NCBI GenBank assembly: GCA_903831095.1
Contig: CAIKWD010000029.1
Coordinates: 1-41,940 of the forward strand
Direction: 5' to 3'
DNA length: 41,940 nt
Origin: Candidatus Staskawiczbacteria bacterium
GTDB lineage: Bacteria; Patescibacteriota; Minisyncoccia; Minisyncoccales; Staskawiczbacteraceae
The first letter of the stretch is position 1, and every line of letters begins with the position of its first letter. This document shows positions 1-39,759 of this stretch, one piece after another. The notes beneath the pieces are model-generated. The model saw only the letters and a list, made by a program, of their open reading frames with translations. It was not told where the DNA came from and did not search any database. A program made the position numbers and the translations under genes.

Positions 1-2124
1 GCTGGAGAAATTTTTTATAAGGTTTGTAATTTTCTAATAGGCAAGGCTTTCTATTTGGTCCCATTGTTTTTGTTTGTTGCCGGATTAATTTTTTTGCGAA
101 CAAAGAAAAAAGGGAAAAATTTAGCAATGGCTATAGCTGTGGCTGTTTCTCTTATAGGATCAGCTGGAATTTTATCAACAAAGGATATGATCCAAAATAC
201 TGGGGGATTTATTGGTTACTGGCTGGCAAAATTGTTTATAGGTTTATTCGGAATTTTAGTTGCCAATATTATATTTGGTGCTATTATTTTAATTGGTTTG
301 TTTATTTTTCTGCAATTTATTTGGCAAGATTTGCAAAGGAAAGAAAAGGAAGAGAAAGAAGCCAAACCTACTTTTGCAGTAAATCGTCAGGATAATGACG
401 ACGTGAAGATCAAGGGATTAGAACATGAAAAAGAAAAGGAAAAAGCCAAACAGCCCGCTGTTGTTTCAAAACTTACTTTGTTTAAGAAAGATGAAGATGG
501 CGCTGAAAAAGCTGAAATAAAAAAACCAGTTTTAAACAAGAATAATTATGTTTTGCCTCCGCTAGATTTGTTGAATAAAAATGAGGCTGTACCAACTTCC
601 GGAAATATCAAGGAAAACTCCATGATAATCAAGAACACTCTTGAGAATTTTGGAATTCCAGTTGAAATGGCAGAAGTTAATGTTGGGCCAACAGTTACTC
701 AGTATGCTTTTAAACCAGCAGAAGGAGTTAAACTTTCTAAAATTACAACATTGTCTAATAATTTAGCTTTGGCTTTGGCTGCCCACCCAATTAGAATTGA
801 AGCTCCAATCCCAGGAAAATCTTTAGTGGGAATTGAGGTCCCAAACAAGGTAAGATCGGTTGTCACTTTGAGAAATTTGCTTTCGCAGACATCTTTTCAA
901 AGTTCTACAAATCCTTTAATGTTGGCTTTGGGAAGAAATGTTTCGGGAGCACCAGTTTATACAGATATTACCGATGGCCCTCACTTGTTGGTGGCTGGAG
1001 CTACAGGTACTGGAAAAACTATTTTCTTAAATAGCTTGATTTTGAGCTTGCTTTACAAATATACTCCCGACCAATTAAGGCTGATAATGGTAGACCCAAA
1101 AAGAGTTGAATTTCAGCACTATAACGATATTCCGCATTTGTTGTGCCCAGTTATTTATGACGCTACAAAAACAATTAACGCTTTAAAATGGTTAGCTCAC
1201 GAAATGGAAAGGCGCTTTGAAGTGTTTTCAGAAGTGCCAGCAAGAAATATTGGTTCATATAATTCAAACAAATCTGTAATTGCTTCAGGTTTGCAAATGC
1301 CATATATTGTGTTTGTGGTTGACGAATTAGCTGACTTAATGGCCGCAAAAGGTAGAGAAATTGAAGCAGGAGTTGTGAGACTAGCTCAAATGGCTAGGGC
1401 AACGGGAATTCACCTTGTGTTGGCAACTCAGAGGCCATCTGTAGAAGTTATTACAGGTTTGATTAAAGCCAACGTACCAACCAGAATTACTTTCCAAGTT
1501 TCTTCACAAATAGATTCTAGAACAGTTATAGATACTTCGGGAGCTGAAAAATTAATTGGATTGGGAGACATGCTTTTCTTGTCTTCAAAGTCTTCAAAAA
1601 TTACCAGAATTCAAGGGCCATATATATCTGAAAAAGAAGTTCAAAAAGTTGCTGACTTTATTGTTGAACAAGGAAAGAAATTTCAAGATCCGCAATCTGT
1701 ACTTACGCAGAGTCTAGAAGAAAGTTTGCAACAAAAAGATGAAGAAAAAGAAGAAGGCGGAGCTGGAGAATTTTTTGGCGGAGCAGATGAAGACCCATTA
1801 TTTGAAGAAGTTAAAAAAATTGTTATTGAGAGTAAAAAAGCGTCTGCTTCATATTTGCAGAGAAGGCTTAGAATTGGATATTCTAGAGCAGCCAGGTTAA
1901 TTGATATGCTAGAAGATAAGGGAATTGTTGGCCCGGCCGACGGCGCAAAACCAAGAGAAGTCTATGGCGACTCGGAAGGCCGTAAAACCGTTGCCGACGT
2001 AGAGCTCGTCCCAGGTGGAGGAAAAGACGAATCCGAAGAAGCCGCCGCCTCGCAAGACGAGGCGAGCCTCGCTCCTTCGGAGCGGGAAGAACAGCCCGAA
2101 TCCGATGACTGGAAAAAAGTTTAA
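1..2124 (+). CDS. ftsK: DNA translocase FtsK/SpoIIIE (5'-truncated by window edge)
   Basis: Frame open from base 1; TM N-terminus, RIEAPIPGKSLVGIEVPN, Walker A GATGTGKT, VVDELADLM, LATQRPS, gamma domain LQRRLRIGYSRAARLID. Confidence 0.97.
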   Translation, partial: AGEIFYKVCNFLIGKAFYLVPLFLFVAGLIFLRTKKKGKNLAMAIAVAVSLIGSAGILSTKDMIQNTGGFIGYWLAKLFIGLFGILVANIIFGAIILIGLFIFLQFIWQDLQRKEKEEKEAKPTFAVNRQDNDDVKIKGLEHEKEKEKAKQPAVVSKLTLFKKDEDGAEKAEIKKPVLNKNNYVLPPLDLLNKNEAVPTSGNIKENSMIIKNTLENFGIPVEMAEVNVGPTVTQYAFKPAEGVKLSKITTLSNNLALALAAHPIRIEAPIPGKSLVGIEVPNKVRSVVTLRNLLSQTSFQSSTNPLMLALGRNVSGAPVYTDITDGPHLLVAGATGTGKTIFLNSLILSLLYKYTPDQLRLIMVDPKRVEFQHYNDIPHLLCPVIYDATKTINALKWLAHEMERRFEVFSEVPARNIGSYNSNKSVIASGLQMPYIVFVVDELADLMAAKGREIEAGVVRLAQMARATGIHLVLATQRPSVEVITGLIKANVPTRITFQVSSQIDSRTVIDTSGAEKLIGLGDMLFLSSKSSKITRIQGPYISEKEVQKVADFIVEQGKKFQDPQSVLTQSLEESLQQKDEEKEEGGAGEFFGGADEDPLFEEVKKIVIESKKASASYLQRRLRIGYSRAARLIDMLEDKGIVGPADGAKPREVYGDSEGRKTVADVELVPGGGKDESEEAAASQDEASLAPSEREEQPESDDWKKV
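2046..2084. repeat. Two GC-rich hairpins inside the ftsK 3' tail
   Basis: CGCCTCG-caaga-CGAGGCG (2046-2064) and CGCTCC-ttc-GGAGCG (2070-2084). Confidence 0.7.
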
Positions 2125-2130
2125 TAAATT

Positions 2131-2265
2131 ATGGCAAAAAGAAAAGTTAAAACAAAAGAAAAAATTATCAAAATAGTGATAGAAAAGAGAGTCGAGCCGT
2201 TAAAAGTTCCGGACATAAAAGTTCGCGATTTTTCTGTGGCGGATAAAATATTTTTTTGCAATTAA
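2131..2265 (+). CDS. Small basic hypothetical protein, 44 aa (not in ORF track)
   Basis: ATG 6 nt after ftsK stop; MAKRKVKTKEKIIKIVIEKRVEPLKVPDIKVRDFSVADKIFFCN; fills the gap to the next gene. Confidence 0.5.
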   Translation: MAKRKVKTKEKIIKIVIEKRVEPLKVPDIKVRDFSVADKIFFCN

Positions 2266-2277
2266 AAATAAAAATTC

Positions 2278-2640
2278 ATGAAAATTAAAACAATTATAGG
2301 AATTATTTTAATTATTTTAGGTCTAGCGTTAACTATTTATATAATAAGTATCCCGCCGAGCCCGGATAATAAATATGGGGTTGGACAAGATTTAGGGATT
2401 TTATTCGTATGTGTTCCACTCTATATAATGGGCGTGTTGGCTTTATTCAGTTCGCTCGGAGCAAATATATCTTTCGTTGGTGGGGCCATCTTGGCTTTCT
2501 CTTTTCTGACGCAATCTATTTTTCGTGAGGCCACACCATCAGCCTTGATTATCGGAGCAGTTTTGATTTCTTATTTGTTATTTATAGTAGGTGTTATTTA
2601 TGGTTTAGGCGAATTAATAGGTAAATTAAAAAATAAATAA
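2278..2640 (+). CDS. Hypothetical membrane protein (~4 TM)
   Basis: 120-aa hydrophobic ORF, operon-like spacing before recA. Confidence 0.75.
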   Translation: MKIKTIIGIILIILGLALTIYIISIPPSPDNKYGVGQDLGILFVCVPLYIMGVLALFSSLGANISFVGGAILAFSFLTQSIFREATPSALIIGAVLISYLLFIVGVIYGLGELIGKLKNK

Positions 2641-2646
2641 AATTTT

Positions 2647-3696
2647 ATGGCAAAAGAAAAAATAGACAAAAAAGAAATTAAAGAAATAAAAAAGGAAGAG
2701 AAGAAAGAGGTTGATAATGTGGTCAATGAAATAAAGGAGAGGTTTGGGGAGGGGGCGATTATGACAATGCGCGAGATACATGCGGTTGATGTGGATGTGG
2801 TGCCAACGGGATCCATTGCCATGGATTTGGCTTTGGGAGTTGGTGGAATGCCTAGGGGAAGGATAATCGAGATATATGGAGCTGAGTCATCCGGTAAAAC
2901 TACGCTTTCGCTCCACGTTATATCTGAGGCGCAAAAAAAGGGTGGTACATGCGCATTTGTTGACGCAGAGCACGCAATGGACCCTGACTACGCAAAACGC
3001 ATTGGAGTAGACGTAGACGATTTGTTAATTTCTCAGCCAGATTCTGGCGAGCAGGCTTTGCAAATTGTAGAAACCTTGGTTAAGTCAGAAAAAATTGATG
3101 TCATTGTTATAGACTCTGTAGCAGCTTTAACTCCAAGGGTTGAAATAGAAGGTGAAATCGGCGACCAACATATGGGCCTTCAGGCTAGAATGATGTCGCA
3201 GGCATGCAGAAAATTGGGAGCAATTGCCGCCAAAACCAACACTATGATTATTTTTCTCAACCAGACTCGTATGAAAATTGGAATGGTTTTTGGAAACCCA
3301 GAAACAACTCCTGGCGGAATGGCTTTGAAGTTTTATGCTTCTGTAAGAGTTAACTTGGCAAGAACTGCGCAAATAAAAAGTGGAGACGAAATTATTGGAA
3401 ACAGAGTAAAAGCTAAAATTGTAAAAAACAAAGTGGCAGCTCCCTTTAAAACAGCTGAGTTTGATATATATTATAACGAAGGAATTTCAAAGTCGGGTGA
3501 TGCTTTGCGAGTTGCCATAGACCGCGGTTTAATAAAACAAAGTGGTAGTTATTTTACCTATAATGGAGAAAAAATGGGGCAGGGAACAGAAGGAGCTAAA
3601 ACTTATTTGAAAGAACATCCAGAGGTTATGAAAGCAATTAAGGTTGAGGTGATGAAAGGCGAACTAGCAGTAGTCAAAAAACCAAAAGAATATTAA
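2647..3696 (+). CDS. recA: Recombinase RecA
   Basis: [49 protein letters not shown]. Confidence 0.99.
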
Positions 3697-3708
3697 ATTA
3701 TAAATAAT

Positions 3709-3737
3709 AAAAAACAGCCCGAGTGAGCTGTTTTTTT
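3709..3737. terminator. Intrinsic terminator after recA (bidirectional-type)
   Basis: aaaaaaCAGCCC-gagt-GAGCTGttttttt. Confidence 0.75.
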
Positions 3738-3799
3738 ATATTTACTTTAATTACATTTTATTGTAAGATTAATTAGGTTTTAGATACGTTATAATTGAC

Positions 3800-3997
3800 T
3801 AGGGAGAGAGTATTTGGAAATGCAAAGCTAAGCGAACCACAATAGGGGAACTTTCCTCTTTTACGCGAAGAGTATCAGAGGGCTTAGAGACGAATCGTTG
3901 TTTCGGACATTGGGTCAATTATAATTCTAAAATTTTTATTGCTCTTTTATTAGTGGGTTATTAGTGAGTATTTTCTTTACTCTCTCCTACCTTTTTT
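3800..3997 (+). ncRNA. Structured ~190-nt RNA, 6S RNA-like
   Basis: TATAAT at 3790-3795; 3800-3849 pairs imperfectly with 3942-3989 (TAGGGAGAGAGTA/TACTCTCTCCTA, GGAAATGC/GTATTTTC, GCTAA/TTAGT, AACCAC/GTGGGTT, AATAGGGGA/TCTTTTATT); central bubble; apical stems; U-tract at 3992-3997; G-U pairs favour + strand. Confidence 0.6.
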
Positions 3998-4007
3998 GTT
4001 GGTTATA

Positions 4008-4030
4008 GACAGTCACCCAGACTGTTTTTT
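4008..4030 (+). terminator. Weak intrinsic terminator before the aroB promoter
   Basis: gACAGTC-accca-GACTGTttttt. Confidence 0.55.
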
Positions 4031-4033
4031 ATT

Positions 4034-4062
4034 TTGACATAAGTGGGCAAATATAATAGATT
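4034..4062 (+). promoter_or_regulatory. Sigma70-type promoter of aroB
   Basis: TTGACA-17 bp-TAGATT; SD AGGAGG just upstream of ATG 4107. Confidence 0.6.
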
Positions 4063-4106
4063 GTAGATAGAGTCTTTGAAAATAAGGTGGAAAAAAAGGA
4101 GGATTT

Positions 4107-5123
4107 ATGGATATCTATCGTTCTTGGAAGATGTTTAGCAAAATCGTGAAGGAAAGAAATGCCGACCAGATAGTACTGGTGACTTCTTTTCCTTTAAGGG
4201 AAAAACTACATGGAGAAATTGAAAAAATAAGGAAAATGGTGCCGTCGGATTTGGAAATTGTACTGATACCAGACGGGGAAAAGGCAAAAGAGTGGAAGTC
4301 TCTTGGTAGGATTTTGACTCAGTTTACGATGTTGTATCTAACCAGAAAAAGCTTGGTGATAGCTTTAGGAGGAGGCTCAGTGAGCGACGTAGTTGGACTT
4401 GCCTGTTCTATTTACAAGCGCGGGATGGCGCATATAAATGTACCAACAACATTGCTTGCTCAAGTTGACGCTTCAATAGGCGGGAAGACCGCGATTAATT
4501 TCTTGGGGCATAAAAACCAGCTGGGAACTTTCCATCAGCCAATTGCCATTTTTGCAATCGCAAAGTTTTTGCGAAAACTGAATAGGGAGCAGTTTATCGA
4601 TGGCTTGGCTGAGATAATAAAAGCCGGATTCATCAAGGATTACGAAATATTTGACATATTGGTTAAACAGAAAATATCTGAATTAAGAAAAAAACCAGTT
4701 GTTCTAGAGAGATTGATCCAAAAGGCAATTGCTGTTAAAGAACATTTTGTCAAACAAGATTTTAAAGACAACGGAATAAGGCAGGCTTTGAATTTTGGCC
4801 ACACTCTTGGCCATGCGCTTGAGCTGAAATATAGCTTAAGCCATGGCATGGCTGTATTGTACGGAATATTTCTTGAACTTCAGGTTGCTGAAAAACTTGG
4901 TTTTGTAAGTACTACCAAGATGATTATTTTAAAGGAAATGTTTGATCTTCTTGGCATTAATTTTAATTGCCATAAGTTTAAAATCGATAGAAAATCGATC
5001 TTGCATGATAAAAAGTCCTTTGGGGATAAAATATCTTTTCCAGTTATTGATATGTTAGGTGAAATAAAAATCTTAAAGATTTCTATAAAAGAACTAATAG
5101 CTGCATTGGAAAAATGCAACTAA
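4107..5123 (+). CDS. aroB: 3-dehydroquinate synthase family (sugar-phosphate cyclase)
   Basis: GGGSVSD, PTTLLAQVDASIGGKTAIN, KNQLGTFHQP, GLAEIIK, LNFGHTLGHALE, LSHGMAV. Confidence 0.9.
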   Translation: MDIYRSWKMFSKIVKERNADQIVLVTSFPLREKLHGEIEKIRKMVPSDLEIVLIPDGEKAKEWKSLGRILTQFTMLYLTRKSLVIALGGGSVSDVVGLACSIYKRGMAHINVPTTLLAQVDASIGGKTAINFLGHKNQLGTFHQPIAIFAIAKFLRKLNREQFIDGLAEIIKAGFIKDYEIFDILVKQKISELRKKPVVLERLIQKAIAVKEHFVKQDFKDNGIRQALNFGHTLGHALELKYSLSHGMAVLYGIFLELQVAEKLGFVSTTKMIILKEMFDLLGINFNCHKFKIDRKSILHDKKSFGDKISFPVIDMLGEIKILKISIKELIAALEKCN

Positions 5124-5152
5124 AAACAGCCCTTTCGAGCTGTCTTTTTTTT
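5122..5152. terminator. Bidirectional terminator between aroB and rpsR
   Basis: aaaaaCAGCCC-tttc-GAGCTGtctttttttt; on - strand the loop is GAAA. Confidence 0.8.
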
Positions 5153-5169
5153 ACTTAACAATCTGTTAT

Positions 5170-5364
5170 TTACTTTGGGGTGTAAGCTATCAAGCCCATT
5201 TGGCGGGCGCGTTTGATGGCTGTGGCAATTTTCTTCTGGTGGTATGAGCAGAGGTTTGTCTTTTTTCTTGGTTTTATTTTGTAAAATCCGGAAACAAACT
5301 TGGACAATAACTCCACATTTTTATAGTCTACGTTATCGATATTTTTTTGGCAAAAGTAACACAT
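5170..5364 (-). CDS. rpsR: 30S ribosomal protein S18 (zinc-binding C+ type)
   Basis: CYFC...VDYKNVELL.KF...KI.PRK.T.LCSYHQ...AIKRAR..GL; rpsF-ssb-rpsR order. Confidence 0.96.
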   Translation of the reverse strand: MCYFCQKNIDNVDYKNVELLSKFVSGFYKIKPRKKTNLCSYHQKKIATAIKRARQMGLIAYTPK

Positions 5365-5478
5365 GCGAATGTAATGAGCACCCCGCCCTCTAAGCTGTTG
5401 CTACGAGGTGAAGTGGTCATTTTTAAATTTTTATTTTAATAATTTATTCGCCCATATATTTAGCATAGAGGGCAGGGT
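5364..5478. repeat. Mini-hairpin plus ~100-bp element with 17-bp imperfect terminal inverted repeats
   Basis: TGCGAATGTAATGAGCA (5364-5380); ACCCCGCCCTCTAAGCT (~5380-5396) versus AGCATAGAGGGCAGGGT (5462-5478), 2 mismatches. Confidence 0.65.
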
Positions 5479-5497
5479 AAGTCTCGTTGTGACTCGC

Positions 5498-6031
5498 TTA
5501 GAAAGGAATGTCTTTGACATCAATTTCATCAGCTGCATCTCCTTCAAATGAAACTATTTTTTGGTCGTCGGCTTGGTCAACTGCTGGGGGAGTGTAGTTT
5601 TCTTCAATTACTGGAATTTCTTCTTGTCTTGAATGTTGTTCTGGTTCATGTTCCATGGCAGATTGTTTCCCATAGTTTGAAGTTCCACTTTGTGGAGCTC
5701 CTGCGCCTCTTGGACCTAATTGCAAAGTTTCGGCAATAATTTCTGTTCTATATTGCTTTACCCCTGTATTGTTTGTCCAATTTCTTGTTTTAATTCTTCC
5801 TTCAATTAAAACCAAGGAACCTTTGTTGAGATATCTGCCAGCAATGTCAGCTAATTTTCCAAAACAGACAATGTTGTGAAACTCAGCTTCTGACTTTTTT
5901 TCTCCGGAGCTTGAAGTATAAAAGCGGTTTGTTGCTATTCCGAAGCTTGTAACTTGTTGTCCGGAAGGCAAGGCTTTTACCTCTGGCTCTCTTGTGACGT
6001 TTCCTAATACGAATGCTTTATTTAGATTCAC
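5498..6031 (-). CDS. ssb: Single-stranded DNA-binding protein (GTG start created by the MITE end)
   Basis: NLNKAFVLGN, IEGRIKTR.W, acidic tail ending DIPF. Confidence 0.97.
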   Translation of the reverse strand: MNLNKAFVLGNVTREPEVKALPSGQQVTSFGIATNRFYTSSSGEKKSEAEFHNIVCFGKLADIAGRYLNKGSLVLIEGRIKTRNWTNNTGVKQYRTEIIAETLQLGPRGAGAPQSGTSNYGKQSAMEHEPEQHSRQEEIPVIEENYTPPAVDQADDQKIVSFEGDAADEIDVKDIPF

Positions 6032-6132
6032 CCCGTTAGAGGTTTGTTTTTATATAACTTTTCAAGTTAATTTCAGACAACCTCTTTTATTTTTTATGAC
6101 ATGTCCCGTTAAACGTAGAACCTCTAACGGGG
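6031..6132. mobile_element. 102-bp MITE with perfect 14-bp TIR and 4-bp TSD
   Basis: CCCCGTTAGAGGTT...AACCTCTAACGGGG flanked by TTCA at 6027-6030 and 6133-6136. Confidence 0.85.
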
Positions 6133-6151
6133 TTCATAATACTGATTGTTA

Positions 6152-6625
6152 TTAACCTAATATTTCTTCTAATTCGTGTTCAATATCTTTTAATTCTACT
6201 TTTTCTTTTTCTTTCTCTTTGGCTGCTGGTTTTTCTTCTGTTGTTTCTTCTTGTGCAGTTTCAACAACTTCTTCTTTCTTTTCTATCTCAAAAGTTGGTG
6301 TTGGTCTTACTCTGGTTCTTCTTTCTTTTTTAAGTTCGGCAGCTAGTTTAATTATAAGCATGTGCCTGACAATTTTTTTGTCTTTTTCAACAATTGCTTT
6401 TACTTCAAGTAATTTGTCTGAGTCCATGTTGAATTCTACAACACCTAAAAATCCGGAAGCTTTTTTTCCGATTGGGTATGAGAATGTCTTGGCTGTGGGA
6501 TTTGTCTGTTTTACAATTGTCCCTTCTTTGCTTTGGATAAGAGATTCTATCTCTTTTCCCTTGGCTTCTGCTTCCTCTGAAGTTATTTCAGGAGAAACAA
6601 TATATGTAAGCTCGTATGCTTTCAT
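6152..6625 (-). CDS. rpsF: 30S ribosomal protein S6 with acidic C-terminal extension
   Basis: MKAYELTYIVSP...FSYPIGK...G...IVRHMLIIK; upstream of ssb. Confidence 0.92.
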   Translation of the reverse strand: MKAYELTYIVSPEITSEEAEAKGKEIESLIQSKEGTIVKQTNPTAKTFSYPIGKKASGFLGVVEFNMDSDKLLEVKAIVEKDKKIVRHMLIIKLAAELKKERRTRVRPTPTFEIEKKEEVVETAQEETTEEKPAAKEKEKEKVELKDIEHELEEILG

Positions 6626-6639
6626 GTATATTTAAACAA

Positions 6640-6704
6640 GAATTCCCGTCCTTCGATAAACTCAGGATGGGGCTTAGAGCAATGCGCTAAGCATGGAAAT
6701 TCCT
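6640..6704 (-). promoter_or_regulatory. Structured rpsF leader (S6:S18-leader-like) containing a palindromic element
   Basis: - strand: GAAUUUCC-AU-GCUUAG..CUAAGC-CCC-[AUCCUGAG..CGAAGGAC]-GGGAAUUC; promoter TTGATT-16-TATAAT with extended TG at 6731-6758. Confidence 0.45.
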
Positions 6705-6824
6705 ATTTGATTAATTTTTTGTATATCGTGATTATATCAGATTATTGTAATAAATCAAGGCTTGTTTTGCTGGATTTTAATATGGCGGTTATGTATAATA
6801 AGTTATATATAAAATATAAATTAC

Positions 6825-8153
6825 ATGGAAACAAACGAATCAATTTTCAAATCATATGACATTAGGGGAATTTACCCCTCAGAACTCAATGATGAGACAG
6901 CTTATTTAATTGGCCGGGCTTTTGCAATAAAATCAAACGCTAAAAAAGTTACAGTAGGATATGACATGCGTTTATCTAGCCCTGCTTTGAAAAGCGCGCT
7001 TATTCGTGGAATTACCGACGAAGGCGTAGATGTAAAAGATATTGGTTTGGTGCCAATTGATGCTATATATTTTTCTGTTGGCAAACTTGGTGACGAAGCG
7101 GGAATAATGATTACAGCTTCACACAATCCTAAAGAGTATAATGGTTTTAAAATGGTTTTAAAAAACATGCAGTGGGTAAGGGGTGTTGAGCTTTTAGAAG
7201 AAGTTAAAAATTTATCAACTGAGTTGGCCTACATAAAAGGCAAAACTACAGAAGAAGATATAACTGTAAAATACATAAACCATGTTTTAAGTTTTGTGGA
7301 CGTTGAAAAAATAAAGCCTTTTAAGGTTGTAGTAGACGCGGGTAATGGAATGGCCGGACAAGTAATGCCAATTTTGACTGAAGGTTTGCCTTTAAATATT
7401 GTGCCTTTAAATTTTAAATTGGATGGAAATTTTCCAGCACATCCTTCAAATCCACTTGATCCAAAAAGCCAAGAAGAAATTTGCAAAACAGTTGTTAAAG
7501 AAAAAGCTGACTTTGGAATAATAATGGATGGCGACACCGACAGGTTATTTTTTGTAGACGAAAAAGGAATTTTTATTCCAGCTGACATGACCTTGCTTTT
7601 ACTGGCAAAATCATTTTTAGAGAAAGAACCAGGAGTGGGGATTGCGTATAATCTTTTGTGCTCAAAAATAGTGCCAGAAATGATTGAGCAGTGGGGAGGC
7701 AAGGCTTTAAGGTCTAAAGTTGGATATGTAAATGTTTCTACTGCTATGAAACAAGGAAATGGGGTTATGGGTGGAGAACTTTCAGCACATTATTCTTTCC
7801 GCGACAACGCTTATGCAGACTCGGGGTTTATTGCCTTTGTAATTTTACTTCAATTACTGTCCAATCACGACCAGCCTTTGTCGGAAATTGTAAAGCCTTT
7901 TTATAAGTATTTTAAGTCTGCAGATTTAAATTTTGAAGTAAAAGACAAAGATACAGTTTTGGAAAGCTTAAAAGAAAAATATTCAGACGGTAAACAGGAA
8001 TTTTTAGATGGCATAACTGTAGAGTATAAAGATTGGTGGTTTAATGTAAGGCCGTCGAATACAGAGCCATTATTAAGGTTGACCATTGAAGCTGATACTC
8101 AGAAAATTTTAGATCAAAAAGTTAAAGAACTAACAAAAATTATTTCTAAATAA
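6825..8153 (+). CDS. Phosphomannomutase/phosphoglucomutase
   Basis: FKSYDIRGIY, MITASHNP, DGDTDR, GELSAH, RPSNTEP. Confidence 0.96.
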   Translation: METNESIFKSYDIRGIYPSELNDETAYLIGRAFAIKSNAKKVTVGYDMRLSSPALKSALIRGITDEGVDVKDIGLVPIDAIYFSVGKLGDEAGIMITASHNPKEYNGFKMVLKNMQWVRGVELLEEVKNLSTELAYIKGKTTEEDITVKYINHVLSFVDVEKIKPFKVVVDAGNGMAGQVMPILTEGLPLNIVPLNFKLDGNFPAHPSNPLDPKSQEEICKTVVKEKADFGIIMDGDTDRLFFVDEKGIFIPADMTLLLLAKSFLEKEPGVGIAYNLLCSKIVPEMIEQWGGKALRSKVGYVNVSTAMKQGNGVMGGELSAHYSFRDNAYADSGFIAFVILLQLLSNHDQPLSEIVKPFYKYFKSADLNFEVKDKDTVLESLKEKYSDGKQEFLDGITVEYKDWWFNVRPSNTEPLLRLTIEADTQKILDQKVKELTKIISK

Positions 8154-8256
8154 AAAACCGCTTAACTCACTAAGTAAATTTTTTCTGCGGCTCGGCCCTC
8201 TCTTGCAGGGGGACCCCTCGCTTCGAAAAAATTTCTTAGCTCGTTTTGCGGTTTTT
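8152..8256. repeat. Bidirectional terminator-like stem with a nested palindromic insert
   Basis: aaaaaaCCGC...GCGGttttt enclosing ACTC-ACTAAGTAAATTTTTTC...GAAAAAATTTCTTAG-CTCGT and an inner GC-rich hairpin. Confidence 0.7.
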
Positions 8257-8264
8257 AAGTTATA

Positions 8265-9242: not shown

Positions 9243-9250
9243 GTTTAGTC

Positions 9251-9356
9251 GCTCGATAACAAGTTTTCTGCTAACGCTCGTGTCCCCGCAATACGGGGAA
9301 ACTCGCTTCGACTGGCACTTCGTGTCCAGTAATACGCTGAAAACTTATTATCTCGC
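9251..9356. repeat. ~106-bp palindromic element (GCTCG...CTCGC family)
   Basis: GCTCGATAACAAGTTTTC...GAAAACTTATTATCTCGC with inner hairpins CCCCG-caata-CGGGG and CAC-ttc-GTG. Confidence 0.75.
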
Positions 9357-9367
9357 TATTTAAATAT

Positions 9368-11182: not shown

Positions 11183-11240
11183 ATTTTTATTTTTGGGTCG
11201 TTTATTAAATTTGACCCGTTTATTTTTTAGTTTATTTTTG

Positions 11241-21978: not shown

Positions 21979-22001
21979 TATGCCTGCCGATAGGCGGGTA
22001 C

Positions 22002-22030
22002 TTGCACATATATAAATAAAGTTGTATAAT
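22002..22030 (+). promoter_or_regulatory. Sigma70-type promoter of uvrA
   Basis: TTGCAC-17 bp-TATAAT. Confidence 0.65.
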
Positions 22031-22052
22031 GAAGCACTAAAAAGTTTGTATA

Positions 22053-22084
22053 TGTCCCCCTACGGGGGATGTCCCGTAGGGACA
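22053..22084. repeat. Tandem mini-hairpins with GTA/TAC triloops
   Basis: TCCCCC-tac-GGGGGA followed by TGTCCC-gta-GGGACA. Confidence 0.75.
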
Positions 22085-28990: not shown

Positions 28991-29003
28991 AATACAAACA
29001 CAT

Positions 29004-29087
29004 GGAGGAGTCGCATAGTGGCCATTGCAACGCCCTGGAAAGGCGTGACCTTAACGGGTCCCGTGAGTTCGAGTCTCACCTCCTCCG
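29004..29087 (+). tRNA. tRNA-Ser(GGA), CCA not encoded
   Basis: GGAGGAG/CTCCTCC acceptor, ACGCC-CT-GGA-AA-GGCGT, long variable arm, GTTCGAGTC; promoter TAGACA-17-TAGAAT at 28965-28993. Confidence 0.96.
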
Positions 29088-29106
29088 CATTAAAATTTAT
29101 TATTTT

Positions 29107-29208
29107 GCTCGGCAACAAGCTTTTTTCCGTCTGCTGGTAACCCCCTTTGTCCTTCGAATACGCTCAGGACAAGTGGACCAGGGGACTGCAAAAAGTTCAT
29201 TGCCTCGC
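29107..29208. repeat. ~102-bp palindromic element (GCTCG...CTCGC family) with nested CCTTCG..CTCAGG element
   Basis: GCTCGGCAACAAGCTTTT...AAAAGTTCATTGCCTCGC; inner TTGTCCTTCGAATACGCTCAGGACAA at 29147-29172. Confidence 0.78.
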
Positions 29209-29218
29209 TTAAAAAAAT

Positions 29219-30007: not shown

Positions 30008-30010
30008 AAT

Positions 30011-30643: not shown

Positions 30644-30663
30644 TTATCTAAAGTTTTTCAATT

Positions 30664-32825: not shown

Positions 32826-32849
32826 AAAATCTAAATTTTTTTAAACTGA

Positions 32850-34028: not shown

Positions 34029-34040
34029 AAAATATAAAAC

Positions 34041-34077
34041 AAAAAACCGTCCCGACTTAGGTCGTGGGCGGTTTTTT
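34041..34077. terminator. Bidirectional terminator
   Basis: aaaaaaCCGTCCCGAC-ttag-GTCGTGGGCGGtttttt. Confidence 0.85.
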
Positions 34078-34086
34078 AATGTTTAA

Positions 34087-34464
34087 TTAAGCAGTGAATC
34101 CAAAGTAGGTTATTATCAATCCAATTATAATTCCAAGTACTAATGCATAAGGCAAGAACTGAGATTTTTCTATGTTCTTTGTATATTTTTTAACCAATTC
34201 TGGCATAAATAACAAAGACAAACCTTTTATTAACGACAACCAACCTAAAATTGTTATAATGATCTGCCAGTTTTTAACCCAAATATTGTGGGCTAAAATC
34301 ATGGAGATACCAATTACAAAACTGGTCATGCCCCACATAAAGAAGCTTTCTTCTGTTTCTAATTGATTAAAAATCTTTTTTAAGTGTTTTTCCTTTATTA
34401 ACAAGGCAAAACAAATAACTACTAGTGAAATTCCCCAAATTTCTGCTAAATAATTTGATAGCAT
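34087..34464 (-). CDS. Hypothetical 4-TM membrane protein
   Basis: 125 aa hydrophobic; HNIW...WQIIIT.LGWL..IKG. Confidence 0.82.
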   Translation of the reverse strand: MLSNYLAEIWGISLVVICFALLIKEKHLKKIFNQLETEESFFMWGMTSFVIGISMILAHNIWVKNWQIIITILGWLSLIKGLSLLFMPELVKKYTKNIEKSQFLPYALVLGIIIGLIITYFGFTA

Positions 34465-34477
34465 ATTTTTATTTTTA

Positions 34478-34596
34478 GCTTAGCAACAAACTTTTTTACG
34501 TTCGGCAATAAACTTTTCTGCGCTATTTCGCCACTTCGTGTGCGAAGGGCTTTCGAAAAGTTCATTACCTCACTTACATTTAGTTTATTGACTCGC
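34478..34596. repeat. Nested pair of GCTCG...CTCGC family elements
   Basis: Inner GTTCGGCAATAAACTTTTC...GAAAAGTTCATTACCTCAC (34500-34573); outer GCTTAGCAACAAACT...AGTTTATTGACTCGC. Confidence 0.7.
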
Positions 34597-34620
34597 TATA
34601 GTTAATATTAAACCGACCTT

Positions 34621-35475
34621 TTAGTAAATTGCGCTTAAATCTATGTCTTTGGCATCTTTTACTTTTCCCTTGTGTTTTCCCATGCATTCGTCAGACGAGC
34701 GATGAGTGTATTCGTAGATTATTTTTTTTCTTTCTTCGGTAGACAAGTCCTGCTTGTTGATTGCCGGGCCACCTATGCATCCGCCATTGCAGTTTAGCAA
34801 GTCTAAAAACTTATATTGTCTGCTCCCGCTTTTAAAGTCTTCAAGCACTTTTTTTATATTTCCAGCTCCGTCGGTTACTAAAATTTCTCCTTCTTTGAAA
34901 AGTTTTTGTATATGCGAAGTAGCTGCCAAGCCTCCTGATATTGGATAAATTTTTGTGTATTCTCTTATTAAAGAGTCAAAGCAAATTTTATCTGAAAAAT
35001 CTTCTTCTTTTATTCCTGCTTGGTCAAAAATTTTCTTCAAATCTTTCAGCGTTATAACTGCGTCTATTTCCTTATATTTTGGTGCTTCCAAAAGTTCTTT
35101 TGCCCAACATGGAGAAATAAAAACAATTTTATAATTTGGGTTTATTTTCTTGCATATTTTTGCCATGGCTGCCATTGGGGAAACAACTGGCATTAAATAC
35201 TTTGCCAATTCTGGATATTGAGCTTTTACTAAAGCTACAACAGTAGGGCAGGGGCTAGAAATATATAATTCTTGCTTTGGGTTTTCTTTTATATAATTGG
35301 CGTAGGCCCAGTTTACCATTCTAGCTCCAAAAGTGAGCTCGGTCACTTCTTTAAAACCAAGCTTGTAAAGCATGCCAATAATATTTGGATATTTAAAATC
35401 AATTGCAAAAGTTGGAGCTAACATGGCAATAGCTTGGTTGTTTTTTATGAGGTCAATTTTTTCTTGTAGAGTCAT
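34621..35475 (-). CDS. [FeFe]-hydrogenase large-subunit C-terminal-domain protein, stand-alone
   Basis: MLAPTF, ISSPCP, VVSPM, VFISPCWAK, LLNCNGGCIGGP; ATG 35475 follows the upstream small ORF stop. Confidence 0.85.
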   Translation of the reverse strand: MTLQEKIDLIKNNQAIAMLAPTFAIDFKYPNIIGMLYKLGFKEVTELTFGARMVNWAYANYIKENPKQELYISSPCPTVVALVKAQYPELAKYLMPVVSPMAAMAKICKKINPNYKIVFISPCWAKELLEAPKYKEIDAVITLKDLKKIFDQAGIKEEDFSDKICFDSLIREYTKIYPISGGLAATSHIQKLFKEGEILVTDGAGNIKKVLEDFKSGSRQYKFLDLLNCNGGCIGGPAINKQDLSTEERKKIIYEYTHRSSDECMGKHKGKVKDAKDIDLSAIY

Positions 35476-35476
35476 G

Positions 35477-35620
35477 TTAGGCTTTATTTTTAACAATCCA
35501 CTGGTTGTAGAGGTTCCATCCTACAAAAACTAAAATAATTATAAAAAACACAACCAAGTGCCAAGTTGGCACTGTTAAAAAACTTACTACTGACAAAATT
35601 ACGCTTCCTACTGTTACCAT
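35477..35620 (-). CDS. Small membrane protein, 47 aa (not in ORF track)
   Basis: MVTVGSVILSVVSFLTVPTWHLVVFFIIILVFVGWNLYNQWIVKNKA; fills the gap, 1 nt before the next ATG. Confidence 0.6.
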   Translation of the reverse strand: MVTVGSVILSVVSFLTVPTWHLVVFFIIILVFVGWNLYNQWIVKNKA

Positions 35621-35635
35621 ATTTTTTTAAATTAT

Positions 35636-35938
35636 TTATTTTTTAGGCAAATTTCCTAAAATGCCGGTAAAAAAATCTTTTATCTTGTCTACAAAGTAAA
35701 ATAAAGGAGACAAAATCCAGTTAAAATCCGAGCCCCACTTGTTTAAATTTAAAGATATTCCAAATTTTGATAAAACTTCGTCTATATTAAACCCAAAAAA
35801 CCTCTGCAAAAGGAAAATCATTATCAAAATAGATATGATTCCAATTGCAATTTTTATTATTGGGCTGACAATGAATTTTATCAAAAAATATGCAATTACT
35901 ATTGCTACCACTATTTCCACTAATGTTGCTACATCCAT
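35636..35938 (-). CDS. Hypothetical membrane protein
   Basis: 100 aa, two N-terminal TMs. Confidence 0.75.
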   Translation of the reverse strand: MDVATLVEIVVAIVIAYFLIKFIVSPIIKIAIGIISILIMIFLLQRFFGFNIDEVLSKFGISLNLNKWGSDFNWILSPLFYFVDKIKDFFTGILGNLPKK

Positions 35939-36023
35939 GATTGTTTCTGTTTTTAAAAGTATTATATAATTTTACCATAAAACCAAAAAACATTGCAATA
36001 ATTTGCAATAAAAAAGCCCAAGA

Positions 36024-36263
36024 TTATCTTGAGCTCAGCTCTATTGCTTTGCTGGTTATTATCATAATCCAGCCCGCAAATTGTATAATATATGCAACAA
36101 TTAATTGTTTTATCGCCTTTTCATTAGCTTCAGAGTCCCATTCTGCAAGGATTGGGTTGATTCGGTCTACGCTTGATTTGAAAAAGCCAAAAATTACCAG
36201 AATTGCAGAAGCAATTATGAAGATAATTCCTCCCCGAAAAAGCATGAATAACATTATATTCAT
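36024..36263 (-). CDS. Hypothetical 2-TM protein, 79 aa
   Basis: SD AAAGGAG before ATG 36263; the longer ORF-track start overlaps the upstream gene. Confidence 0.6.
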   Translation of the reverse strand: MNIMLFMLFRGGIIFIIASAILVIFGFFKSSVDRINPILAEWDSEANEKAIKQLIVAYIIQFAGWIMIITSKAIELSSR

Positions 36264-36282
36264 TTTTTCTCCTTTCAAAAAT

Positions 36283-36570
36283 CTATAGCCTAGCCATAGT
36301 TTTTTTTGCTTTAGCCAAAGTGTCATATGACTCATTTTCCCATTGGCCATTTTTGTGATGGCTTTTGCAAACTGTTTTGCGGGAAGCTGGCATTCTGACA
36401 ACATAAAGCTGTTCTTTTTCCTGGATTTCTTTTAACACCTCAACTATGTCATAAACACAGGTGGGGCATCTGCATCCGCAGTATCCGCGCTTTTTCTGTT
36501 TGTCTCGGAAACCGTTGAGAATCCTGACGCCCAATTCTTCAATTGAAATTTTCACTTTTTTATTCGGCAT
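36283..36570 (-). CDS. Small Cys/His-rich hypothetical protein
   Basis: YCGCRCPTC...CKSHH; SD AAGGAG; promoter TTGACA-17-TAATCT at 36625-36653. Confidence 0.7.
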   Translation of the reverse strand: MPNKKVKISIEELGVRILNGFRDKQKKRGYCGCRCPTCVYDIVEVLKEIQEKEQLYVVRMPASRKTVCKSHHKNGQWENESYDTLAKAKKTMARL

Positions 36571-36667
36571 TTCTTCTCTCCTTTTTTAAATGAACTGTTA
36601 AAACACTAAATCTACGATATTTATAGATTATATAAAATTTTGTTTTGTGTCAATTAAAAAACTGCCG

Positions 36668-37639
36668 TTAGATGGCAGTTTTTTCTTTAATTAAGTCGTT
36701 GAGGATTTTTTTAATGGCTGTAATGCTGTCGGGGTCAATTATGGATATTGGGATGATTGTTTTTTTTAGTTTTTTGAATTTGGCTTTTATTTTTGTAATT
36801 TCTTTTTTTTCTATTTCATCGCTCTTGCTCAAGAAAATGTATTCTGTTTTTTCCAGTAGGGCAGGGTTGTAAGCTTCTAGTTCTGCTCTGACAGTTTTGT
36901 AGTCTTTTATTGGATCTTCAGATTCAGCAGAAACAAAGTGAAACAAAACTTTTGTGCGTTCTACGTGGCGCAAAAATTTTATGCCAAGGCCTTTGCCAGC
37001 TGAAGCTCCTTCAATAAGCCCTGGAATGTCAGCTAATATTAAGTCGTAATATGTGCCAAGGTTTGGCTCTAAAGTAGTAAAAGCGTAATTGGCAACTTTG
37101 CTGTTGGCTTTTGTAAGTTCGTTAAGCATGCTGGACTTTCCGGCGTTTGGAAGCCCGATAAATCCAACGTCAGCAATCATTTTGAGTTCTAGAAATATTT
37201 CAAAATATTCTCCTTCAAGACCTGGTTGAGCTTGTATCGGGCTAGTGTTTGTTGCAGACCTGAAAAACCAGTTTCCCTTGCCTCCTTTTCCGCCCTTGGC
37301 AATTAACTCTCTTTGGCCAACCTTAGTAATTTCAATGTCCCTTCCAAGAGAAATATTATGGCAAACAGTACCCACGGGCACGTTTAGAGTAAAATCTTCA
37401 GCATTACTGCCGTCATGAAGCCCTGACTTTCCATTTTCTCCGTCTTGGGCTTTGTAGTCTTTCTTAAAGCGAAATTTTCGCAAAGCTCCAAGGTCGCTCA
37501 CGCCCTCAATATAAACATTTCCGCCAATACCTCCATTTCCTCCGGTAGGACCCAAAGCCCATTTTACTTTACTAAAAGTCACCATGCCTTTTCCGCCATG
37601 ACCAGCTTGAACTGTTATTTTTACTTCATCTACAATCAT
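36668..37639 (-). CDS. obgE: GTPase ObgE/CgtA
   Basis: Gly-rich Obg fold, LELKMIADVG.IGLPNAGKSS, ANYAFTTLEPNLG, DIPGLIEGAS.GKGLG..FLRHVER; terminator-like hairpin 36656-36684 overlaps the stop. Confidence 0.98.
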   Translation of the reverse strand: MIVDEVKITVQAGHGGKGMVTFSKVKWALGPTGGNGGIGGNVYIEGVSDLGALRKFRFKKDYKAQDGENGKSGLHDGSNAEDFTLNVPVGTVCHNISLGRDIEITKVGQRELIAKGGKGGKGNWFFRSATNTSPIQAQPGLEGEYFEIFLELKMIADVGFIGLPNAGKSSMLNELTKANSKVANYAFTTLEPNLGTYYDLILADIPGLIEGASAGKGLGIKFLRHVERTKVLFHFVSAESEDPIKDYKTVRAELEAYNPALLEKTEYIFLSKSDEIEKKEITKIKAKFKKLKKTIIPISIIDPDSITAIKKILNDLIKEKTAI

Positions 37640-37645
37640 TTGGTT

Positions 37646-37921
37646 TTATTTTGTTACGTATAAATTACAAAAGCAGTGCCCATCTTTTTTAACTTCGTCT
37701 AAGTGCCAGAAGCATGGGCAAATTTTCTTGGCATCTTCAGCTTTGTCTCCGGAAACTCTTCTGCATGGGCAGTATTTTTCTCCATGTTTTTCCTCATTCC
37801 TGAAAAGGCCGTCGGCTATTCTGTTTACCACTTTTTCGTCAGGGTTTAGCTTAATTCCAGCGCTTTCTGCATGTGCTAAAAACTCCTTTTTTAATTCGTC
37901 TATTTTAATTTGGTCTGCCAT
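37646..37921 (-). CDS. Ferredoxin:thioredoxin reductase catalytic-subunit-like protein
   Basis: YCPCR...ICPC...GHCFCNLY (CPC/CPC/CxC). Confidence 0.9.
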   Translation of the reverse strand: MADQIKIDELKKEFLAHAESAGIKLNPDEKVVNRIADGLFRNEEKHGEKYCPCRRVSGDKAEDAKKICPCFWHLDEVKKDGHCFCNLYVTK

Positions 37922-37922
37922 A

Positions 37923-38270
37923 TTATTCTTTAATGGCGTTTTCCAGCCATTCTTTAATTGAATTTTCCGGAACCAATCCTACAAATCCGTTTATTTGTTT
38001 TCCATTTTTCAATAAGGCAATGCAGGGGATTTTATCTACATTAAATTTTTGCGAGGCAATTGGAGCTTCGTCAACATTAACTTTTGCCAAAACAACTTTG
38101 TCCTTAAACTGCTCAGTTACTTTTTCCAAAATTGGGCCCAAAGTATTGCACGGCCCGCACCATGTTGCAAAAAAATCTACCAAGACAAATTTGTCTGCCT
38201 CGCCCGTAGGGCTACGGCCGAGGGTGGCTACTTCTTTCTCAAAATTTGCGTCTGTTAGATGAAGCGTCAT
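37923..38270 (-). CDS. trxA: Thioredoxin with a 9-codon palindromic insertion
   Basis: VLVDFFATWCGPC, AKVNVDE; extra residues in ATLGRSPTGEAD. Confidence 0.95.
   Translation of the reverse strand: MTLHLTDANFEKEVATLGRSPTGEADKFVLVDFFATWCGPCNTLGPILEKVTEQFKDKVVLAKVNVDEAPIASQKFNVDKIPCIALLKNGKQINGFVGLVPENSIKEWLENAIKE
38198..38224. mobile_element. 27-bp palindromic element inserted in-frame in trxA
   Basis: CCTCGCCCGTAGGGCTACGGCCGAGGG; related copies at 39682-39733. Confidence 0.8.
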
Positions 38271-38405
38271 CTTATTATTTTTAATGTTAATTATATACTC
38301 TTTACTATCTCATTTTTTTGGCAAAAAAGCAAAGGGCAAGGGGAGTATAAGTTACAAATCAAAAGCCGGAATTTTACTTCCGACTTTTGTCCATTGTTTA
38401 AATAG

Positions 38406-38732
38406 TTATCCTTCAATTGGAGCCAAAGTATAATCTTGTCCATTTTCACTTACCTTGTAGTCAAATTTGCTTTTGTCTATTGGGGCGTTTTCAGTTATAT
38501 AATTTTCGCTTTCCAAAGTGGTTATCATGTCGGCACTGCCTTCTGCATCTGGGTATCTGCCATGATCTACATAATACAAAGTTAAAGCTGTTTTAAACTG
38601 CTGTACATTTGTTTGTGCCACAGCCATGCTTGCACTAGCCAAAAGGTCTCCGGCTTTCACGGTTATTCCATTTATGGTCAAAGTCATTGTGGCTATTAAA
38701 ACTGTTGCCGACAAAAGTTTTGTTATTATCAT
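38406..38732 (-). CDS. Exported protein with GspG-like domain, no prepilin motif
   Basis: QFKTALTLYYVDHGRYP...L....YI...P.D...Y......DYTL; promoter TTGACA-18-TATAAT at 38758-38787; terminator 38361-38388. Confidence 0.75.
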   Translation of the reverse strand: MIITKLLSATVLIATMTLTINGITVKAGDLLASASMAVAQTNVQQFKTALTLYYVDHGRYPDAEGSADMITTLESENYITENAPIDKSKFDYKVSENGQDYTLAPIEG

Positions 38733-38842
38733 ATTTTTGTTATTTTATTATATATTAATTATACCACATATTAAGCATACTTGTCAATAGATAGATACAA
38801 TCAAAAACCCAAGGGGTTAGCCTTGGGTTTCGCGTTTATTTG

Positions 38843-39109
38843 TTAGCCTTCGTAATGTGTTTCTGGGTAGTTTCTGTAAATTTCCTTTTTCTTTGATTTT
38901 CCAGCAGACTTTTTTTCGTCTTCTGCTTTTACTGCAGTAAGCCAGGAAATAAAGGGAATTCTAAGCTTGTCCAAGCACCAGTTGTCGTCTTTCATTAAGG
39001 GCTTTTTTTCTTCCTTGAACTTATTTAGCATAGTTAGAGTAGCCCTCAAATTTGAAGGTGACAGCTTATTATGCTCTTCTAAAAATTGTTCTTTAGTAAT
39101 AAATACCAT
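38843..39109 (-). CDS. Hypothetical protein, 88 aa
   Basis: Clean ATG-TAA ORF followed by terminator at 38803-38830. Confidence 0.75.
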   Translation of the reverse strand: MVFITKEQFLEEHNKLSPSNLRATLTMLNKFKEEKKPLMKDDNWCLDKLRIPFISWLTAVKAEDEKKSAGKSKKKEIYRNYPETHYEG

Positions 39110-39218
39110 AGTGATTTTTTAGATTATTTAAGTATATTTGATAATAACATACTTTCTACAAAAAAACAAGAGCTGGCCTTGCGAATTGCTAAAATAAAAA
39201 AAGCCCGTTAAATTGGGC

Positions 39219-39587
39219 TTATATTAATGGCTGTGAAGGAATTTTAATATCTTTTATGAATTCAATTACCTTGGCAGAGAAATCTTCCCTTGAAGAAATT
39301 CTTTCCTTAAAGCGAAAATGTGACGGTATATTATCCCATTTTATGGATAGCTCTATTCGCATTTTTTCTTCTTCTGGTCCGGCAAATTCAAAAGAAAGCC
39401 TTTTAAATCCGTCTCCTAAAACGCTTTCATAGCAGGTTTCCTCTAATTCACAAATACAAAGTGAATCTTCCTTTGTTATGAGGAAACAATGATCAGTTCG
39501 GTATTTTTTGTTCTTAACTTGGACAAAAAACATTCCGTCTGGCAATATGCATTGTGGTTTAATTTTTTTTCGTGACTTCCTTTTCAC
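39219..39587 (-). CDS. Hypothetical protein, 122 aa
   Basis: GTG start with SD AGGAG, promoter TTGACA-17-TAATCT at 39645-39673, terminator 39196-39220. Confidence 0.7.
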   Translation of the reverse strand: MKRKSRKKIKPQCILPDGMFFVQVKNKKYRTDHCFLITKEDSLCICELEETCYESVLGDGFKRLSFEFAGPEEEKMRIELSIKWDNIPSHFRFKERISSREDFSAKVIEFIKDIKIPSQPLI

Positions 39588-39674
39588 TGTTTATTCTCCT
39601 ATTATTATTTTAATGTGCATTATTAATGAAATTTGGGATATTGTAGATTAACAGTAATAAGGTATTTTGTCAAT

Positions 39675-39759
39675 AAAAAACCCCTTGGCCGTAGCCCTCG
39701 GTCGTAACCTACGGGTGAGACCAACGGGCGAGGCGCCTCGGTAGGGAAGCGGTTTTTTT
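39675..39759. repeat. typA terminator region with two nested copies of the 27-bp element
   Basis: aaaaaaC-CCCTTGGCCGTAG-[CCCTCGGTCGTAACCTACGGGTGAGA]-CCAACGGGCGAGG...GGttttttt. Confidence 0.75.

Follow-up and report, generated by a model that had tools for sequence, protein, structure and literature searches.

Small GC-rich palindromic elements, probably non-autonomous and mobile, in the reduced genome of a Candidatus Staskawiczbacteria bacterium

Introduction

The closest described counterparts of the elements treated here are the repetitive extragenic palindromic (REP) sequences, the IS200/IS605 insertion sequences and the Rickettsia palindromic elements (RPEs). Long hairpins of REPs form from inverted halves (PMC3337134); REPs lie mainly downstream of genes, have intragenic copies in several species and show G.T pairing in their stems (PMC3733652). 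In a REPtron, the repeat that flanks a Y1 gene is that gene's own, and the insertion sequences IS608 and ISDra2 target the lagging-strand template, with a transposase that recognises subterminal secondary structures (PMC6006769). RPEs are palindromic repeats of ~100–150 bp, located in frame in housekeeping genes that are unrelated to one another, in a small AT-rich genome; no transposase is known for them (PMC10969869). Here, we report on a 41,940-nt stretch of DNA (the window) from a Candidatus Staskawiczbacteria bacterium, which is the entire contig CAIKWD010000029.1 (C29) of assembly GCA_903831095.1 (G000; 806,263 bp in 31 contigs, 35.3% G+C, 97% completeness). By TrpS, the closest named records are metagenome-assembled genomes labelled Candidatus Staskawiczbacteria, with identities of 91% or less. 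Positions given without a contig name refer to the window. A population of small GC-rich palindromic insertion elements of the REP/RPE kind, that is, of non-autonomous selfish DNA, probably extends through the genome and has members in the window; two families, A and B, were found to be multi-copy.

Bacteria of the candidate phyla radiation are regarded as extremely streamlined. If the elements are what they appear to be, a genome of 0.8 Mb tolerates dozens of selfish hairpin repeats, including copies within mnmA, miaB, truB, ligA, tsaD and the thioredoxin gene, and half of the sampled genomes of its order carry genes of single-strand transposases similar to the REP-associated tyrosine transposases (RAYTs). 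The in-frame copies would offer a natural test of how proteins accommodate added loops. The mitochondrial DNA of yeast and fungi has GC clusters that are likewise GC-rich palindromic mini-elements of a very AT-rich small genome, some of them in coding sequence; those clusters, unlike the present elements, are organellar.

As in the REP/RAYT system, the elements are short GC-rich palindromes with many dispersed copies; unlike in that system, this genome has no RAYT, and family A adjoins none of the RAYT-like genes examined. The RPEs are resembled by description, in that palindromes lie in frame in conserved genes that have no relation to each other, again in a small AT-rich genome. The lineage differs, however, and the partners here are much shorter (24–40 nt for family B, 30 nt for double hairpins); in addition, family A is largely intergenic, with 10 of 58 copies in frame, compared with close to one half for three of ten RPE families. 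Among the literature matches listed, none was found that links REP/RAYT, MITEs (miniature inverted-repeat transposable elements) or palindromic in-frame elements with these bacteria, and the group's names are absent from the main text of a Y1 survey (PMC6006769). New here are the analyses by strand, the RAYT setting in the lineage, the finding on orientation and the reassignment of one island, 6648, to a predicted leader RNA.

Results and Discussion

GC-rich islands of the window and their relatives in the genome

A preliminary description, made from the letters of the window, had proposed a non-autonomous, multi-copy population of palindromic micro-elements that share one hairpin grammar. A window scan revealed GC-rich islands at the places given there. 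When twelve islands were compared with the genome by blastn-short, 29107, 34500, 9251, 8165, 38193 and 39733 were found to have relatives elsewhere, 5364 gave one 22-nt match, and 2046, 6648 and 22053 were without any relative. The islands 21946 and 34047 were recognised as ordinary terminator hairpins. The multi-copy population was borne out by 26 copies of family A and 15 loci of family B, whereas 2046, 5364, 6648 and 22053 are single-copy by sequence. Rfam at gathering thresholds revealed two tRNAs and nothing else, and a simple map of open reading frames (ORFs) accounts for 92% of the genome.

Congener comparisons comprised 24–26 genomes of the genus, including or excluding G000, with the number varying by locus. 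The order-level sample consisted of 200 other genomes of the order, with sizes of 0.3–1.2 Mb.

Structure and distribution of family A

Family A elements are dispersed, 75–108 nt long, and combine conserved inverted arms with exchangeable GC-rich cores. In the aligned copies, a left end, CGCTCGGCAAYAAACTTTTTT, and a right end, AAAAAGTTYATTGCCTCGCT, enclose a GC-rich hairpin core. The two inverted arms of ~15 nt end in a T- or A-run, and the foot reads CTCG on both sides of the + strand and CGAG on the other strand, unlike the 5' tag GTAG or CGTC of REPs. A further difference from REPs is that the arms are not palindromes themselves and that the cores are exchangeable, with at least three core types differing between subfamilies and between genomes.

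Searches of the genome contigs with blastn-short and nhmmer yielded 23 full copies (E 3e-33 to 2e-5), or 26 in 806 kb with the three divergent relatives 8165, 9251 and the C3 copy of 9251, besides eight stray single arms. By BLAST, family A was detected in 13 of 24 congeners with 1–11 matches each, every genome having its own core variant common to its copies; in the 200 other genomes of the order it was not found, bar one 24-nt match. We conclude that family A elements are limited to this genus.

The copy at 29106–29209 (+ strand; nhmmer E 7.5e-32) lies between tRNA-Ser and a SIMPL/DUF541 gene, the ATG of which follows after 9 nt. It has an extra apex hairpin, which the preliminary description had listed as 29149, and a 96% copy is present at an unrelated locus (C13:33886–33988). 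In the public data, which were contigs only, from four DNA runs of one lake-water study on the same population, word depth within this copy was 113–126 vs. ~6 in the flanks; the public contigs also break at the elements. No RNA run is listed as containing the stretch. The composite at 34477–34597 (+ strand) consists of an inner copy (34499–34574) with an extra left arm (34477–34498) and an extra right arm (34575–34597), and runs opposite to the flanking minus-strand genes. The entire composite is repeated at C9:30329–30440 with 97% identity over 112 nt, and its inner copy was found without the outer arms at C26:144006–144080. A divergent relative with two core hairpins (9250–9357, + strand) is located upstream of trpS and antisense to it; its foot and arm plan are as in family A, and a copy of 92.5% over 80 nt is present on C3. 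A family-A-like element at 8162–8247 (+ strand), of the same plan with different arms, lies within the loop of the trpS terminator. As judged by Pfam domains, the in-frame hosts of family A are MnmA, a MiaB-like enzyme, TruB and ComEC.

Pairing of the foot and arms

For the alignment, 58 family A copies were collected, 20 from this genome and 38 from 12 congeners, with six further matches omitted because their ends were unclear; 51 gap-free copies were used for pair counts, and seven with indels in the arms were dropped. The two foot positions that are unpaired on the + strand were T.C in 51/51 and C.T in 48/51 copies, corresponding to tandem A.G/G.A on the other strand, and positions 1 and 21 are also G.A on the minus strand. 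At the other 17 arm positions, 787 of 867 cells were Watson–Crick. The 80 remaining cells comprised 64 that are G.T on the minus strand, nine that are G.T on the plus strand and seven that are neither, with the G.T excess stemming mostly from two shared polymorphic positions. Folding gave the lower minimum free energy on the minus strand for 48/51 copies with RNA parameters and for 49/51 with DNA parameters. According to the foot and arm counts, family A has a genuine, conserved G.A foot, and its arms are built to pair on one strand. Since the foot is invariant, covariation evidence does not come from it; in one copy, the foot-adjacent pair is changed on both sides, from G-C to A-T.

Sheared G.A pairs and GNA loops have special stability in DNA, and it was from such features that a grammar common to unrelated hairpin families had been proposed. 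The part concerning G.A conservation stands for family A, with its invariant foot. Tandem G.A in helices outside family A was not enriched (5 sites vs. 7, 4 and 2 in composition-matched controls), and a strict tandem-GA scan that required GC-rich inner stems returned only family A copies. GNA/TNC triloops accounted for 16 of 61 GC-rich triloop hairpins genome-wide vs. 12.5% expected, a count in which related copies enter repeatedly. From the triloop and tandem G.A counts, a grammar shared by unrelated families was not shown statistically. With RNA parameters, the cores alone folded better on the + strand in 44/51 copies; with DNA parameters, they favoured the minus strand in 36/51. This split preference arises because C-GNA-G on one strand is C-UNCG-G on the opposite strand, so that the loops do not name a strand.

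Position and orientation of family A

Among the 58 copies, 37 have the start codon of a same-strand ORF of ≥60 aa 1–31 nt downstream, nine lie within a frame in the same orientation and one in the opposite orientation, six face a start codon on their other side only, and five have none of these positions. Family A thus lies mostly just upstream of start codons, unlike REPs, which are found mainly downstream of genes or between convergent genes. The positions can be read as those of a cis-acting module with a function, as an RNA leader or as an intercistronic structure, which selection keeps before housekeeping genes. Copies at the same place in orthologues fit this explanation, namely those at a gene of 133 aa (G000 and G019), at a gene starting with MIKFDVITIF (G000 and G015) and at a phosphoglycerate-mutase-like gene (G000 and G006). 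So does the + (mRNA) strand, on which C-UNCG-G loops can cap the cores of the most frequent subfamily and on which the cores alone fold better with RNA parameters. The arms, by contrast, pair better on the strand antisense to mRNA, the cores at the same site differ between species, and the family is confined to part of one genus with variable occupancy at one site. A maintained module is also at odds with the 10/58 copies in reading frames, the stray and stacked arms, the nested composites and five copies antisense to the adjacent gene. As the orientation, too, follows regional strand asymmetry rather than the neighbouring gene (see below), we regard selection for such a module as an unlikely explanation of the family.

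Orientation was compared with residual GC skew, determined from genes within 15 kb of the element after removal of the gene-strand effect on GC skew (0.166). Five family A copies of this genome oppose the adjacent gene. The orientation matched the strand of positive residual skew in 22/22 copies with |z|>2 and had the same skew sign in the other four (26/26 by sign, with the five opposing copies among them), in copies that are few and clustered on contigs of a genome with an unmapped origin of replication. A strand bias, which the preliminary description had suggested looking for, is hence present in every decidable copy. This agreement implies that orientation follows a regional, replication-type asymmetry better than it follows the neighbouring gene. 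We conclude, from the skew, that family A orientation is fixed relative to replication-associated strand asymmetry, which adds a replication-related bias to the features compared with RPEs and provides a concrete handle on mechanism.

Empty and filled insertion sites

In mnmA, the loop after the ATGHY motif was compared in 24 orthologues. Six are empty and one holds a stray arm alone; in the remaining orthologues, the loop is filled with other repeats or with family A elements of differing sequence, accompanied by one-sided stacks of extra arms. By eye, the empty allele looks like fused element arms. In the thioredoxin gene, a family B palindrome (38197–38224, unstranded) adds eight residues (LGRSPTGE) in frame, an insert that was seen in 1/26 aligned rows, in this genome only. 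In uvrA, a double hairpin of 30 nt (22055–22084, + strand) follows in frame directly after the ancestral ATG (22052–22054). Promoter and start region are conserved in 26 genomes, and the insert is present in this genome only (1/26); related-strain contigs from the lake runs skip 22055–22084, and blastn-short revealed no second copy in the genome. The uvrA promoter itself is strongly conserved, with CTTGMAC, ~17 nt, TGTATAAT and ~25 nt before the start codon (window 21990–22054 and 25 congener loci).

Around trpS, the halves of the terminator flank 8162–8247 in this genome, and the relatives compared have an unbroken hairpin with a T-run. Many relatives have a short, plain spacer upstream of trpS. 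G005 and G024 have family-A-like elements of the same orientation there, G015 and G017 a different repeat with a GTG start, and G009 and G013 palindromes of other kinds. A repeat of ~42 nt that ends in a GTG start codon occurs in this genome at C6:20931, C12:21879, C18:29125, C26:68938 and C26:76416, and at the congener loci L100, L111 and L144; it precedes different genes by species, trpS in G017 and G015 and rpsR in G041. On C9, beside a small GIY-YIG gene, a duplicated 5' half of a tRNA gene carries a 40-nt family B insert, and the intact tRNA gene 300 nt away is without it.

No target-site duplication was found at the uvrA, thioredoxin or tRNA-half insertions. The elements are multi-copy, present or absent at orthologous sites, and inserted precisely without target duplication. 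Occupancy is variable at mnmA, the thioredoxin gene, uvrA and the trpS region, and the kinds of target named in the preliminary description were all encountered: a terminator loop (8165), a start codon (22055–22084), protein loops (mnmA, thioredoxin) and the elements' own copies (34477–34597, 39682–39734 and the stacked arms).

Two further explanations bear on these sites. Ordinary MITEs, deletion derivatives of a DDE insertion sequence moved via terminal inverted repeats, could have the ~15-nt inverted arms and the size of 75–108 nt seen in family A. They are nevertheless highly improbable here, given the missing target-site duplications at all three insertions, an invariant foot that is a direct, non-palindromic tetranucleotide and is constant rather than site-specific, and a genome without a DDE_Tnp_1 or rve gene or a long repeat, in which the only transposase found is of the IS110 family and lies on a 1.7-kb contig. 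Spread or homogenisation without a dedicated transposase, through gene conversion, template switching or recombination with look-alike sites, would explain the re-occupation of hot spots and the genome-specific 'master' sequences. The genome-own core variants, the filling of the same hot spots by different variants, the one-sided stacked arms together with the fused-arm look of the empty mnmA allele (by eye), and the lack of a transposase for the elements in this genome agree with such a process. It is opposed by clean boundaries at sites unlike the element (uvrA ATG, thioredoxin, tRNA half) and by the strict strand orientation, which double-strand recombination does not predict, and its chance of accounting for the elements appears slim.

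Candidate enzymes in this genome and its relatives

The statement that no mobilising enzyme lies in the window was upheld and extends to the rest of the assembly; we therefore describe the elements as non-autonomous and REP/RPE-like, with a mobiliser that is not among the genes found here. This genome has no DDE_Tnp_1, rve, TnpB-type or relaxase genes. Its only long repeats are 141-nt contig overlaps, which implies that it has no multi-copy insertion sequence. An IS110-family (DEDD) transposase of 453 aa is the sole ORF of a 1.7-kb contig (C22:247–1608), and no other classical transposase was found in the assembly, which also has one tyrosine recombinase and three serine recombinases of the large type. 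A possible Y1 remnant at the end of contig C28, a weak recurring tblastn match, proved spurious once translated.

Six small free-standing GIY-YIG genes (82–109 aa), each beside or close to a tRNA gene, are located at C9:3647–4000 (L227), C21:72946–73164, C26:167588–167785, C31:9662–9862, C12:31302–31511 and C23:26323–26532. The idea that such genes might be flanked by the repeats was not supported, as none is flanked by families A or B, and they were rejected as mobiliser; one family B copy lies in a duplicated tRNA half adjacent to one of them. The genes on C9 and C26 are bracketed by a duplicated tRNA 5' part, as if a mobile cassette had entered the tRNA gene.

Y1_Tnp genes were detected in 14/25 congeners and in 103/200 other genomes of the order, one of which, of 0.7 Mb, gave as many as 20 matches. 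This frequency is unexpectedly high for such reduced genomes. Most congener matches lie in open frames of ~220–290 aa, and two loci are short canonical IS200-type genes. Inspection by eye revealed that at least 18 of 21 examined RAYT-like genes lie between two copies of one genome-specific hairpin of 20–45 nt, often centred on TCCGA/TCGGA. In this respect, the congener Y1 genes resemble the REPtron as presented in PMC6006769, but the flanking hairpins are not of family A or B. The association of Y1/RAYT genes with hairpins that the preliminary description had in mind thus exists in 14/25 congeners, but with other hairpins than those of families A and B, and not in this genome.

In two cases, L075 (G041) and L076 (G009), the RAYT-like gene has an in-frame copy of its own flanking hairpin in its coding sequence. 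By eye, a 15-nt likeness to the family A left arm was noted beside one RAYT-like gene of G021, and a match of 10–11 nt between the stem of a RAYT-flanking hairpin and a family A arm in G013.

Mechanism and its weighing

On the reading of the elements as non-autonomous selfish DNA, they would survive because they are short, self-folding and tolerated where they landed. They may move as single-stranded hairpins at the replication fork, where a strand-specific enzyme would cut and rejoin them, most plausibly a RAYT-type Y1 (HUH) transposase; this candidate is suggested because genes of that type, with their own hairpins on the flanks, occur commonly in the lineage. That target duplications are absent, that the foot is non-palindromic and that the orientation is fixed by strand all fit a single-strand, fork-linked mechanism. 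Likeness to IS200/IS605 is found in the same absence of target duplication, in hairpin ends, in a short non-palindromic flank motif and in strand-specific orientation. The family A copies of this genome may be relics, may have been moved in trans, or may have spread by recombination.

Several observations weigh against this reading. Y1_Tnp (PF01797) had 0 matches in this 97%-complete assembly, and tblastn of 15 congener Y1 proteins against the genome gave a best E of 0.029. Neither family A nor family B was found beside the 21 RAYT-like genes examined, and the TCCGA-centred palindromes of the relatives are lacking in this genome. Among 24 congeners screened for both, seven have Y1 and family A, six family A only, six Y1 only and five neither, this genome being a further family-A-only case; the occurrence of Y1 genes does not follow that of family A within the genus. 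No same-strain empty site or excision allele was seen in the public data, which are contigs rather than raw reads. Several orthologous sites are occupied in different species, and 37/58 copies are followed within 1–31 nt by a start codon on the same strand; a role in cis would agree with both observations. The counts on the G.A foot, folding and orientation refer to related copies, not to independent events, and the residual skew is partly confounded with the regional majority gene strand. Finally, the better-folding minus strand is the C-rich strand and, by the usual GC-skew reading with an unmapped origin, the leading-strand template. On that reading of the skew, the better-folding strand would lie opposite to the one expected from an IS608-type model. 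The absence of TnpA and TnpB here is a further difference from IS200/IS605.

A bolder version, which we hold as a tentative possibility, would make family A a new kind of single-strand element that is defined by structure and oriented by replication strand. Recognition would rest with the invariant G.A foot and the G.T-tolerant arms, and the core would be an exchangeable cassette; movement would be due to an enzyme other than the known Y1 transposases or to fork/Okazaki-fragment processing. Together with RAYT-type systems, such hairpin elements would be the main mobile DNA of these genomes. If this were true, they would continually supply essential proteins with new peptide loops.

Family B and the single-copy elements of the window

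Family B is a near-perfect palindrome of 24–28 nt, found in elements of 24–53 nt and also nesting in itself. Of its 15 loci in the genome, two are half-sites, and several are nested one within another, as in the window at 39682–39734 (unstranded), where a copy lies within a copy in a terminator-like A-run/T-run context. The family carries CGTAG/CTACG within the stem, not as a foot. Its in-frame hosts, by Pfam domains, are MnmA, thioredoxin, TsaD, LigA, an HI0933-like flavoprotein and a TrwB-like ATPase. By eye, orientation is mixed within contigs; as the palindrome is nearly symmetric, this orientation provides no strand information.

The island at 2046–2110 (+ strand) encodes the acidic C-terminal tail of FtsK and forms two GC-rich hairpins; it is single-copy. 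This tail extends 45–71 residues from the same anchor and is variable in sequence in all 24 orthologues, so that it has no definable empty site. The ssb–rpsR spacer (5365–5497, − strand) contains a long-range GC-rich stem and a mini-hairpin (5365–5381). It is common only to G023, and other genomes have other inserts or none. On the strand antisense to rpsR, the triloop of the mini-hairpin is GTA here and GGA in G023, with the G.A positions kept. We conclude that this spacer is a variable insertion hot spot.

A predicted leader RNA of rpsF

The island 6648 was removed from the list of mobile elements, to which the preliminary description had assigned it, being a conserved rpsF leader with covariation. 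The structured 5' leader (6634–6717, − strand) is present behind the same promoter in 12/26 genomes of the genus, the 11 congener loci being L125, L129, L130, L134, L139, L141–L145 and L147. Its fold has two hairpins and a conserved closing stem; compensatory change is seen in 12 of 17 predicted pairs. Rfam, run on window 5100–6900 at E≤1, gave no match, including to the rpsF (S6:S18) leader model. We conclude that 6634–6717 is a predicted leader RNA on the rpsF sense strand. It is probably autoregulatory and a candidate S6:S18 autoregulatory RNA of the lineage.

Further motifs in the genome

A 14-nt palindrome centred on CTTAAG forms tandem arrays with G-runs between them at C26:141699–142142. 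The motif TTTATTGTGCGACAAAT, of 14–17 nt, has ~25 occurrences genome-wide on both strands, for example at C18:4166, 9122 and 12166, C6:6917 and 19391, C8:4492 and 12147, and C23:34262, and may be a promoter or operator site.

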